A DNA stretch of 64,000 nucleotides from positions 4,898,001 to 4,962,000 of the forward strand of contig NC_135821.1 of the NCBI RefSeq assembly GCF_964213995.1, given 5' to 3'. The translations under genes were made by a program, and so were the position numbers. Positions 737 to 47,204 of the stretch are shown piece by piece (the first letter of the stretch is position 1; the number at the start of each line of letters is the position of its first letter). Under the pieces are notes generated by a model. That model made no database searches, was not told the origin of the DNA, and saw only the letters and a list, made by a program, of their open reading frames with translations. The DNA comes from Mustelus asterias. Taxonomy: Eukaryota.

Positions 737-1860
737 TTCCGTTACTTTGACCGGGATGATGTTGCCCTGAGTCACTTTGCTGAGTTCTTCAAGGAGCAGT
801 CACATGAGGAATGGGAACACGCTGAGAAACTGATGGCATTCCAGAATAAACGTGGAGGCAGACTCATCCTGGAGGATGTCAAGGTTGGATTCTGTCATCT
901 TGATGTCACCTTGTATTTTGTAAATTGTTGATTTTATTTTCCCACAGCATCATTTGGTTCTGACTGTCTGCCATGATTAAAACTGCCTCGTATTGACCTG
1001 AGAATGGGTGCATGAGTTGGTGTGGCTTTGATCTATGGATCAACCAGGGCTAGTGGCGAAAGGATCAATAAATGTGGAGGCTCAAAAGAAATGGGGGGGG
1101 GTTCTGTGCTGTAAACTGATGGCTCAAACAAGAACTGGTTAAACTATCAGCAAACAATGTAGCTCTCTATGGATCAAGTAATTTGCAAAATGGGTTTTGA
1201 TTCTTGATCCATCAGTCCATCAACAAAGTGATGGAAGGTAACATCCATGGCACTAACAAGATCTATTTTTGCCCCTCTTTCAGAAGCCAGAGCAGGATGA
1301 GTGGGGCAATGGTCTGGAGGCCATGCAGAGAGCTCTGCAGATGGAGAAGAATGTGAACCAGAGTCTGCTGGATCTGCACAAACTCTCCTCTGGGAACACC
1401 GACCCTCATGTAAGTTGATATTGGAATCTGCCCTTCGCAGTTGCAGTCTGAGCTTTTGGAGTTGCAGAGACCAGCCATGCCTTGGATCTGTCACTGGTTC
1501 ACAAGGCTTTTGGATTCTGAGATCTGTTTCTTGAGGCACTCGCTCCCAGTTTAATGGAATTGTGACTTGCTACTTGTGCACATAATCTAGAATTATCCAC
1601 ATGTCATACTTTCTCCATCCACCCAGTGCAAGATGAGGGTAACTTTCACCTAGGAAAGATCTTCCATGTTTGAGTTAATATTCACTAATTTCTCTCCTGT
1701 CTTTCCTTTCCAGCTGTGTGACTTCCTGGAGACTCACTACTTGGATGGACAAGTGAAGATGATCAAGAAGCTTGGAGATCACATCACCAACCTGAAGAGA
1801 CTGGGAGCCCCTGAGAATGGCATGGGAGAGTACCTGTTTGACAGGCTCACTCTGAACTGA
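737..1860 (+). CDS. Ferritin M/H-like, array copy 1, 5'-partial; exons 737-883, 1284-1409, 1714-1860 (exon 1 lies upstream of the window)
   Basis: AG/GT-bounded phase-0 exons translate [49 protein letters not shown] / [42 protein letters not shown] / [48 protein letters not shown]. Exon sizes 147/126 match vertebrate ferritin genes. AATAAA at 1901-1906. Confidence 0.93.
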
Positions 1861-2476
1861 CTGGGTTTCTAATGGGAATATCAATTTTGTTGCATTTGAA
1901 AATAAAACATTGTCTCTGTAATTCTGTAGCTGATTTCATTATTTTCCACCCTAACCAGCACATCTTTTGGACTGTGGGAGGGAACCAGAACACCCAGAGG
2001 AAACCTGTGCAGATGCTGTACAGACTGTGATTAAAGCCCAAGACCCGCCCCAATAAAGTCAGTTGGATGAGCAGAAAGGGCCCATCAAGTCTGCTCTGCC
2101 AGCCAATAAGATGGCTGATATGATATTCCTCCATTCCACTTTCCTGTCTAATCTTCACCCTCAATTCATTTTGCCAATTAAAAATCTCAGCCTTGAAGAT
2201 ATTGACCCAACATTAGTGGTAAAGAATTCCACAGATTCACTACCCGATGAGAAGATATTCCTTCTCATTTGTCTTAAGGGGTCACCCATTTATTCTGAGT
2301 CCTTGGGTCCTAGACTCTCCCACAAGGGGAAACAATCAGCATCTACTCTCTGAAATCCCCTGAGAATCTGCCATGTCTCAGTAAGGTCACCTCTCATTCT
2401 TCTAAACTCCAGTGAGTATAGACCCCAAGCCTACTCAACCTCTCCTCATGAGAAAATACCTCCATAGCTGGGATCA

Positions 2477-44900: not shown

Positions 44901-47204
44901 GCCAGTGACACCAATGTCTGACAAATGAGTTTTTTTAAAAAAACTAGCACTAAGAACTCACCAGCTCCTTGGAGAGCAGCTTTCCAAACTCCCCAGCATA
45001 TCCATTTAGGAAAAACAAGCAGCTGGAACTTCCGTTCCAAACCACTCGCCATCCTGACTTGGCAGCACAGTGGTTAGTGCAGCTACCTCCGTGCCAGGGG
45101 CCAGGTTTGCTTCTGGCTCAGTGATTGTCCATGTGGGTTTCCTCCCACACTAGATGTGGATTGGTCATAACAAATTGCCCCTTCATGTCCCAAGCTGTGT
45201 AGGTTAGGGAGAAATGCATGGGGTTAGAGGGATAATGGAAAGGGATCGGGGATGGTGCACACTTGATGGGCTGAATGGCCTCTTTCTTTTGATTTATTAC
45301 CACCTGTATTTAACATGGTGAAAAGTATTGTTTCTTGCGCACTATACAGACAAAGCATACTCTTCATAGAGAAGGAGAGGGTGCAGAATGTAGTGTTAGT
45401 CATAGTGAGGGTGTAGAGAAAGATCAACTTGATGCAAGGCAAGTCCATTCAAAAGTCTAATGGCAGCAGGGAAGAAGCTGTTCTTGAGTCAGTTGGTATG
45501 TGACCTCAGACTTCTGTATCTTTTTCTCCAGTGGAAGAGTGCCCAGGGTGCGTGGGGTCCATAATTGTGCTGGTTGCTTTCCTGAGGCAACAGGTAGTGT
45601 AGATGGAGTCAATGGATGGGAGGCTGGTTTCTTTCTGCACTGTAGGGTTTGATGGAAATGTATTGCTGTTCCTTTACAATTACTGGGTCAAATTCCATCC
45701 CTAACAGCACAATGTACCTTCACTATGTAGACTGCAGTTCAAGAAGCTCCCTCACTGCCACCATCTTGTGGGCAATTAGTGCCTTAGCCAGTAACACCCA
45801 TGTCCAATGAGTGAATAAGTGTTTTGACATCCCATCTTCTCATTGTCACGTTTGACCCACACACTTGGAGATGGTGGGAGGTGAGATTCGTTTTGAGATG
45901 GTGTTTGTGAAGTTGCCCCTAATGTAATCATTAATATGGAATAATCTCTTCCTTGTATTGACATCATTGCTCTGGGCCAGAACACTGGAAGCTGTTGCAG
46001 ACTTCACTTCCTATGGTTTTGAGGTAGAATTTCTTTCCACAACGCTTTTCTCTTTCAGAAGCCAGAGCAGGATGAGTGGAGCAATGGTCTGGAGGTCATG
46101 CAGAGAGCTCTGCAGATGGAGAAGAATGTGAACCAGAGTCTGCTGGATCTGCACAAACTCTCCTCTGGGAACACTGACCCTCATGTAAGTGTTTGATTCT
46201 TTGACTGGCATGATGCAATTTCCTGATTGCAGCAAGGTGACTAATATACCCTTACAACCTTCATCAAAATGATGGTTGTCACATGTTTTGGGATACAGTA
46301 AAGTATTGTTTCTCGTGCACTACACAAAGCATTCTGCTCAGAACATACGGGAAAGAGTGCAGAATGTAGTGTTAGTTATAGCTAGGGTGCAGAGAAAGAT
46401 CAACTTGATGTGAGGTAGGTCCATTCAAAAGTCTGGCAGCAGGGAAGAAGCTATTCTTGAATCGGTTGGTACATGACCTCAGACTTGTCTTTTTTCTGGT
46501 GGAAGTGTGGGGTCCTTGATGCTACCAAAAGAGAAAATGCTGGAAAATCTTAGCAGGTCTAAGGAGAGAAGAGCTGACATTTCAAATCCCGATGACCCTT
46601 TGTCAAAGCTAAAAGGCATAGAAAGTGATTTATGCTGGCTGCTTTTCCAAGGCAGCGGGAAGTGTAGATGGAGTCGATGGATGGGAGGCTAGTTTGCATG
46701 GTGGACTGGGCTACTTTCACAACCCTTTGTAGTTTCTTGCCGTCTGGGTTGGAGCAGGAGCCATACCAAGCTGTGATACAACCAGAAAATGTCAAACCAT
46801 CAATAGCTCTCATCAGTTCACTTTGAGTGCTGTCACTACTTGATGGGCCATTAAATACTACTGACCATGAGTATAATGGTGTGCCAAGCATTGGCAAACC
46901 TCTGTGGAAAATTTATTCAATATTACTTTGTGAAGTTGTTGACTGAATAAAAGACACCAATGTAGCAAGAAGCAACCCTCCCACTTTTGGATGTTATCTC
47001 GTCATTTGCAACCCTATTTCCAAGGCTCATAGTTCTTTGTTTTCCCAGCTTTGTGACTTCCTGGAGACTCACTACTTGGATGAACAAGTGAAGATGATCA
47101 AGAAGCTTGGAGATCACATCGCCAACCTGAAGGGACTGGGAGCCCCTGAGAATGGCATGGGAGAGTACCTGTTTGACAGGCTCACCCTGGGGGAGAGTGA
47201 CTGA
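41976..47204 (+). CDS. Ferritin M/H-like, array copy 6 (176 aa); exons 41976-42077, 43327-43473, 46059-46184, 47049-47204
   Basis: [12 protein letters not shown]... / FCYFDRDD...[13 protein letters not shown]... / [15 protein letters not shown]...DPH / [13 protein letters not shown]...IANLKGLG...RLTLGESD*. Canonical splice sites; AATAAA near 47292. Confidence 0.93.
42755..43250 (+). mobile_element. Penelope-like element 3' fragment in copy 6 intron 1
   Basis: [43 protein letters not shown]; same family as 15898-16432. Confidence 0.7.
44046..44719 (-). mobile_element. Solo LTR (674 bp) in copy 6 intron 2
   Basis: TG...CA termini, 4-bp TSD AACT (44042-44045 and 44720-44723), minus-strand TATA and AATAAA. 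Confidence 0.6.

Follow-up and report, generated by a model that had tools for sequence, protein, structure and literature searches.

The 64,000-nucleotide stretch of the Mustelus asterias genome analysed here (the window; NC_135821.1, positions 4,898,001 to 4,962,000) carries six copies of a ferritin gene, and this report concerns how their exons are kept alike. All six predicted copies were confirmed at the coordinates listed below. They are the right end of an array of 36 copies at 4.662-4.945 Mb of contig C21, located by an exon search and exon mapping over 394 kb in the 3.68-Gb genome. The array runs as 18 minus-strand copies (M18-M01) followed by 18 plus-strand copies (P01-P18), copies 1-6 of the window being P13-P18. 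Four exons and three phase-0 GT-AG introns were present in 34 of the 36 copies, with an AT donor in P10. The window copies comprise the following features (UTR, untranslated region).

359-258 nt before the window start, plus strand: exon 1 of copy 1 (P13)
737-883, 1284-1409 and 1714-1860, plus strand: exons 2-4 of copy 1 (P13), gene part 737..1860
5141..8749, plus strand: copy 2 (P14), TATA 5141, exons 5209-5310, 7611-7757, 8159-8284 and 8603-8749, type B 5′ UTR
5284-5286, plus strand: premature in-frame TAG of copy 2 (exon 1), where other copies have TAC/TAT (Tyr)
13139..17627, plus strand: copy 3 (P15), TATA 13139, exons 13205-13306, 14099-14245, 15661-15786 and 17481-17627, type A 5′ UTR
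22923..25708, plus strand: copy 4 (P16), TATA 22923, exons 22991-23092, 24535-24681, 25112-25237 and 25562-25708, type B 5′ UTR
31281..35213, plus strand: copy 5 (P17), TATA 31281, exons 31349-31450, 32672-32818, 33308-33433 and 35058-35213, GESD end
31211..31290, plus strand: core promoter block of copy 5 (about -138 to -59 from the ATG)
32819..33307, plus strand: copy 5, intron 2, which aligns to none of copies 1-4 and 6
41877..47204, plus strand: copy 6 (P18), TATA 41877, exons 41976-42077, 43327-43473, 46059-46184 and 47049-47204

The two copies that depart from the four-exon plan are P07, at which no alignment of exon 3 was found, and P09, in which exons 1 and 3 are fused by a deletion at a microhomology of 6 nt (G000:C21:4865621-4866190, in L017). 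This deletion lies inside exons 1 and 3 and is not an intron loss; exon 4 of P09 equals the majority sequence at 138 of 138 sites. A joint of the P09 type (window equivalent 31404/33361) also occurs in contigs of another organism, D, and is therefore shared or recurrent. Damage was also seen in P01 (a stop and a frameshift), in P14 (the TAG) and in P10 (the AT donor), while 31 copies appear intact. Copy 2 (P14) is likely a pseudogene; despite the TAG, its exons are as near the majority sequence as those of intact copies (8/513 differences). The two arms mirror each other in order (Spearman 0.96 for 14/16 plus-arm copies; P01 and P18, which lack a partner, were dropped), mirror partners align at 68-97% with differing intron lengths, and no N gaps lie in the array. 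Given the mirror order and the divergence of partners, the arms are evidently an old inverted duplication and not two haplotypes.

Exon 2 of copy 4 matched Pfam PF00210 Ferritin at 45.8 bits against a cut-off of 24.5, which exon 3 (24.0) and exon 4 (17.8) did not reach when taken alone. The best PDB matches of exon 2 were to a "middle subunit" (E 4e-21), with heavy chains close (9e-20). The ferroxidase-centre residues E, Y, E, E, H, E and Q, at seven positions that we take from the human H chain, are kept in 33 of 34 copies, M14 having Y for H. No Rfam match to an iron-responsive element (IRE) was found near the eight of 34 first exons scanned (five in the window, three in L011-L012).

As originally predicted, the exons of the window copies are near-identical, synonymous sites included. 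Copies 1 and 6 have 3 differences in the 126 nt of exon 3, and over all 15 window pairs any single exon differs by 1-7 nt, with a proportion of synonymous differences (pS) of 0.019-0.058. Coding exons in the array are about 98% identical, and the 528 pairs among 33 copies, P01 excluded, give a pS of 0.036, a proportion of nonsynonymous differences (pN) of 0.019 and a pN/pS of 0.53. The coding sequence (CDS) differs at about 11 of 513 sites irrespective of intron homology: the distance is 11.8/513 in the 389 pairs without an alignable intron end and 10.9 in the 20 pairs in which all six align. Non-coding segments fall into families, only 59-93 of 561 pairs aligning per intron end or 3′ UTR. Among pairs with unalignable flanks, ungapped identity, about 99% in the exon, collapses near the splice sites, again as predicted, to some 25-35% within 8-10 nt of donors and about 15-20 nt of acceptors. 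In these pairs it also ends at the ATG and in exon 4 past base 140, at the point where LN and GESD endings diverge, which is seven bases short of the shorter stop. The 5′ UTRs (18 of type A, 11 of type B, three of type C and two unique) lose identity at the ATG, and the 3′ UTRs are likewise not homogenised.

The further claim that introns and promoters had diverged beyond alignment needs narrowing. BLAST aligned neither the introns nor the 3′ flanks of copies 5 and 6 to copies 1-4, short matches of 26-89 nt aside, but the introns of copies 1-4 partly align at 72-93%, and the promoter of copy 5 matches those of copies 3 and 4 at about 90%. The upstream region of copy 6 aligns to no copy except for a repeated piece common with copy 3. 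Copy 5 introns have relatives beyond the window (M17, M16); those of copy 6 have none, and its promoter, UTRs, donors and introns are all unalignable to every other copy. The term "exon-limited" proved too narrow, since a TATA core block (about -138 to -59 from the ATG) is common to 32 of 34 copies at 88-94% pairwise, with the first 7-9 bases of introns, and numerous non-coding tracts, being shared as well. The supposed "different regulatory contexts" accordingly do not extend to the core promoter; they apply only to introns, UTR types, copy 6 and P01. The non-consensus intron 2 donor GTTGGAT (for example at window 884-891) recurs in 31 of 34 copies although their introns are otherwise unrelated, while copy 6 has GTATGC; these shared donor bases, +3 to +9, would fit DNA tracts but also splice constraint, and are suggestive only.

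The five conflicting variant groupings described for the window (L/V80, G/S94, R63W, acc/act and the C-terminus) are all present. Of 101 pairs of common variants in the array, 65 show all four gametes. Linkage is strong over no more than a few bases and decays within 10-30 nt, which points to short tracts, and none of the 15 common variant sites was tied to the flanking intron family at p < 0.05, so that no edge-hitchhiking was detected. Singleton-only sites outnumber shared ones (62 versus 31), and this excess, together with the pN/pS, fits recently refreshed exons rather than old genes frozen by selection.

Evidence on the direction of change came from retrocopies. At least 27 processed copies were listed, 40 of 206 candidates having been scored; 24 were fetched, and all 24 span an exon junction. 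The most informative position was the following.

1322, 8197, 15699, 25150, 33346 and 46097, plus strand: CDS site 288 (third base of an Ala codon), derived C in all six window copies

In the array, 30 of 34 copies carry the synonymous C at site 288, and these include members of every intron family as well as the singletons. By contrast, the older A was found in 13 of 14 covering retrocopies (C in 1/14; Fisher 1.5e-7 versus the array). The A is also present in both dispersed intron-bearing copies, L034 (C11) and L035 (C22), which belong to one array subfamily, lie on other chromosomes and have introns about 4-17% from the array family. These dispersed copies keep old alleles at both 288 and 394, as expected of a cis-acting process. 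One retrocopy, L037 (2% diverged), has a 3′ UTR that matches M17 alone (96% over 107 nt) and yet carries A at 288, where M17 has C; by 3′ UTR, seven of the 24 retrocopies were assigned to a parent, one of them cleanly. At site 394, T is absent from all 34 array copies but present in 8 of 20 retrocopies and in both dispersed copies. At site 226, A is found in 33 of 33 array copies and in five young retrocopies, whereas five old retrocopies have C (four) or T (one). Sites 394 and 226 show completed turnovers. Copy 6 holds the derived alleles at 226, 288 and 394. Sites 218 (CpG), 284, 318, 96 and 339 were kept out of the main evidence.

We then compared contigs of four runs, from the same organism and from organisms B, C and D, with copy 5, the one copy type that this cross-species intron test covers. 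The A at site 288 accounts for 1845 of 1854 of contig depth in B, 9051 of 9061 in C and 9012 of 9012 in D (99.5%, 99.9% and 100%), but for only 229 of 1114 (20%) in the same organism. The copy-5-type intron 2, joined to exon ends, is kept in B, C and D at about 86-92% (39 differing letters over about 510 nt, 72 over about 540 and 44 over about 400, respectively). The start of intron 1 is kept there too, likewise joined to exon ends. The intron lineage therefore predates the species split, and the exon allele is younger. Cross-species turnover rests on this single site, sites 226 and 394 having been compared with retrocopies. On these sequence comparisons, and given the four-gamete conflicts, gene conversion among the copies is evidently ongoing, which moves the original prediction of old duplicates kept alike by such conversion beyond inference.

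Our findings suggest, with a probability of roughly 0.8, that short DNA-templated conversion among the 36 ferritin copies persists only in islands held alike, in all likelihood by purifying selection. The array would have been built from old tandem duplications and one inverted duplication, after which insertions, deletions and mobile elements would have broken intron and UTR homology and ended conversion there, family by family. In the exons and the TATA block, selection would remove homology-breaking changes, so that tracts of tens of bases could go on passing alleles in cis, between arms too, while longer tracts would carry promoter and intron pieces among copies still sharing them. The likely purpose is dosage, that is, many interchangeable subunits for the 24-mer, presumably iron-unregulated given that no IRE was found. 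Given the many germline retrocopies, the lack of an IRE and the ovary-specific expression of a Greenland shark cluster (10.1101/2024.09.09.611499), this role is probably exercised in the ovary or oocyte. Among the runs listed as matching window 30400-35400 none was of RNA. The anatomy, the mosaic sharing of variants and the allele turnover across all intron families are direct observations, to which these steps supply a conjectural history.

The original prediction left the donor as either short DNA tracts or cDNA. Our results favour DNA tracts, and cDNA as the main donor did not hold up. DNA is the likely donor because homogenisation has reached the core promoter but not the transcribed UTRs, none of the 102 introns in the array has been lost, and tracts cross promoters and introns. 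Exact matches of at least 60 nt comprised 1792 confined to exons, 281 wholly non-coding and 228 crossing a boundary, reaching up to 320 nt, and many identical tracts link opposite arms. M08 and P03, for example, share 320 nt of their upstream sequence, M15 and copy 2 share 290 nt within intron 1, and in M16 and M07 a 229-nt match runs from the promoter through exon 1. Five of six retrocopy starts lie 28-42 nt before the ATG, downstream of the TATA block.

That reverse-transcribed ferritin mRNA, or RNA itself, was the main donor and rewrote exons alone is improbable. Germline cDNA is clearly made, as the processed copies attest, a ferritin cluster is expressed specifically in the ovary of the Greenland shark (10.1101/2024.09.09.611499), and identity does end at or near splice sites. 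However, an mRNA donor would have carried its UTRs along, and identity stops even inside exon 4, ahead of the shorter stop. A cDNA acting in trans should not have spared both dispersed intron-bearing copies or left every intron in place, and it offers no account of variants 366 and 378, which lie 12 nt apart in mRNA across intron 3 and show an r2 of 0.00. The promoter and intron tracts, finally, require a DNA donor.

The islands are likely defined by purifying selection. Invariant columns make up 420 of the 513 of the CDS, and singletons per site are 0.11 at zero-fold, 0.19 at two-fold and 0.18 at four-fold sites. GC-biased conversion was considered and rejected, as weak-to-strong and strong-to-weak minor alleles are balanced (30/29 among singletons, 14/10 among shared variants). 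In the Mano and Innan model of conversion-enhanced purifying selection (PMC3924837), selected sites are predicted to slow, which the slow majority sequence fits. That model leaves neutral sites at their normal rate, however; silent sites of the array seem slower and would need weak selection.

Several observations weigh against the reading set out above. In eight older retrocopies, four-fold sites depart from the majority at 27 of 300 positions and zero-fold sites at 133 of 1650 (polymorphic and CpG sites excluded; the rows are not independent), a four-fold to zero-fold ratio nearer 1:1 than the 2:1 of free synonymous drift; this slow silent change of the majority implies some constraint on silent sites too. 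Among 40 of 300 cross-organism difference rows listed, exons contributed one, site 288. Exon and intron distances are weakly correlated (Mantel rho 0.19, p 0.03), as are exon 2 and exon 4 distances (rho 0.30, p 0.012, in one of six exon-pair tests). Some identical non-coding tracts may stem from recent duplication or mobile elements. One of the six retrocopies, L042 (C9:74019176-74019668), begins at -99 and includes the TATA block, so that the block must sometimes be transcribed. Intronless copies with an L042-like start also occur in organisms C and D (records 11 and 19 at 31256), record 11 skipping intron 1. Conversion has a minimal efficient processing segment (MEPS) of about 200 bp in yeast and rodents, although shorter events are not forbidden (PMC3924818), and islands of 136-144 bp, among them the exon 3 islands of three copies, fall below it.

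These three, copy 6, M01 and M02, have exon 3 flanks that align to no other copy and yet carry the derived C at 288; their homology island is 136-141 bp, and the donors of copy 6 are unlike the array from intron base 3-4 on. As no flank can be aligned, a cDNA would offer them the same homology as a DNA donor, a point in favour of cDNA, and the two are indistinguishable here. Bridge copies since lost are possible. It is doubtful, though conceivable, that abundant oocyte ferritin RNA or cDNA served as a repair template for these copies beside DNA conversion. If true, this would be RNA-templated germline conversion in a vertebrate, measurable through the dated retrocopy record.

Somewhat less probable than a main cDNA donor is unequal crossing-over with breakpoints in exons, which would shuffle intron modules and spread exon alleles with little true conversion. 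Intron families are indeed mosaic along genes (P03, P17 and M16 switch family across an exon), and subfamily copy numbers differ between arms. Crossing-over would nevertheless take flanking introns along and homogenise them, and between inverted arms it would give inversions rather than spread. It also sits poorly with linkage that decays so quickly and with flank-isolated copies that still hold new alleles.

Birth-and-death turnover of old duplicates under extreme nucleotide-level constraint, without conversion, is very unlikely, being largely refuted by site 288: constraint cannot explain how one derived silent base came, after the species split, to stand in 30 copies whose intron families are unrelated. 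Such a scheme could draw on the slow silent turnover and the scarcity of exon differences noted above, and on subfamilies that are recent duplicates with alignable introns. Yet it accommodates neither the observed pN/pS nor broken copies with majority-identical exons (P09 exon 4, 0/138). Nor are ferritins as such frozen at silent sites, since the three neighbouring paralogues vary freely, differing at 15/40, 19/43 and 23/43 four-fold sites. An assembly artefact, in which polishing or collapse produced the exon identity or the mirror arms are two haplotypes, can be dismissed even though the best-matching run, X1, may be the source sample and hence not independent, because between 2 and 16 private or minor differences separate every copy from the majority, contigs of X1 run without a single difference through exon1-intron1 and exon2-intron2-exon3 of copy 5, the array is ungapped, mirror partners diverge and have unequal intron lengths, and old retrocopies lie near the same majority sequence.

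The pattern itself is known, and shark ferritin expansions have already been reported. The closest match is mammalian KRTAP1 (Zhou et al., 10.1101/282418), in which coding regions evolve in concert while flanks radiate, with the switch at the initiation and termination codons. Reverse transcription was rejected there since UTRs do not hitch-hike, and short-tract conversion with selection was proposed. As described, the KRTAP1 genes are few and single-exon, whereas the ferritin array has 36 four-exon genes with islands of 102-147 bp and, unlike KRTAP1, is split into two inverted arms, has its core promoter homogenised and has left retrocopies that document the turnover. Fungal ribosomal protein paralogues (10.1101/751792) are alike in a synonymous divergence (dS) far under intron divergence and in encoding highly expressed, dosage-selected complex subunits, but they are pairs rather than an array, and in the account given a cDNA donor was argued from the dS inequality alone. 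The ferritin array shows the same inequality, but the tests of UTRs, promoter, intron loss and cis position point to DNA donors.

Among ferritins, Greenland and white sharks have large old clusters, reportedly syntenic for about 250 million years and ovary-expressed (10.1101/2024.09.09.611499). We liken them to the present array, which has far fewer copies, from their description; neither "gene conversion" nor "concerted" occurs in the main text of that report. Mammalian X-linked FTHL17-like loci evolve in concert by gene conversion in single lineages (PMC5363321, PMC2724270), but they are a handful of dispersed, X-linked, pseudogene-like loci, and the passages on them describe no exon-intron contrast. 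A literature search, with most subscription journals and bioRxiv supplements outside its reach, found no earlier report of concerted evolution in shark ferritins.

As a natural experiment on non-allelic gene conversion in the germline of a vertebrate, the array is unusually open to testing, with 36 copies, islands of 80-147 bp that have or lack flank homology, arms in two orientations, copies that have moved elsewhere and two dozen retrocopies recording earlier alleles. A dS far below intron divergence, elsewhere taken for a sign of cDNA donors, arises here together with signs of DNA donors. It is also a warning that ages of shark ferritin copies, and lineage-specific "expansions", will come out far too young from coding trees.

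Divergent single ferritin genes flank the array, in the window and at G000:C21 4.964-5.026 Mb. The window gene lies outside the conversion pool.

57259..63469, minus strand: divergent neighbouring ferritin (exons 2-4), 61-68% amino-acid identity

Used as a yardstick for synonymous divergence, this gene differs at 15 of 40 four-fold sites with exon 1 counted in. A match to IRE_I precedes another divergent neighbour, at C21 about 4.9938 Mb, the only flanking ferritin with an IRE; this gene, at 4.9937 Mb, is likely an iron-regulated housekeeping gene. A second ferritin cluster of at least seven copies (L064-L067 at C21 10.470-10.504 Mb and L072-L074 on C1362) has its own majority sequence, with exon 3 differing at 0-3 of 126 nt, and includes one copy with an identical exon 3 but largely diverged flanks.

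Reverse transcriptase frames, presumably of the LINE (long interspersed nuclear element) type, lie at window 59217-60821 and 27180-28806 (minus); the former is open over 534 amino acids and sits within intron 2 of the divergent ferritin. At window 54979-55415 there are about eight tandem copies of a 53-nt piece from an element resembling a short interspersed nuclear element (SINE), and a match to U2 small nuclear RNA, barely over the Rfam cut-off, lies within a divergent ferritin gene (L032:4774-4953).

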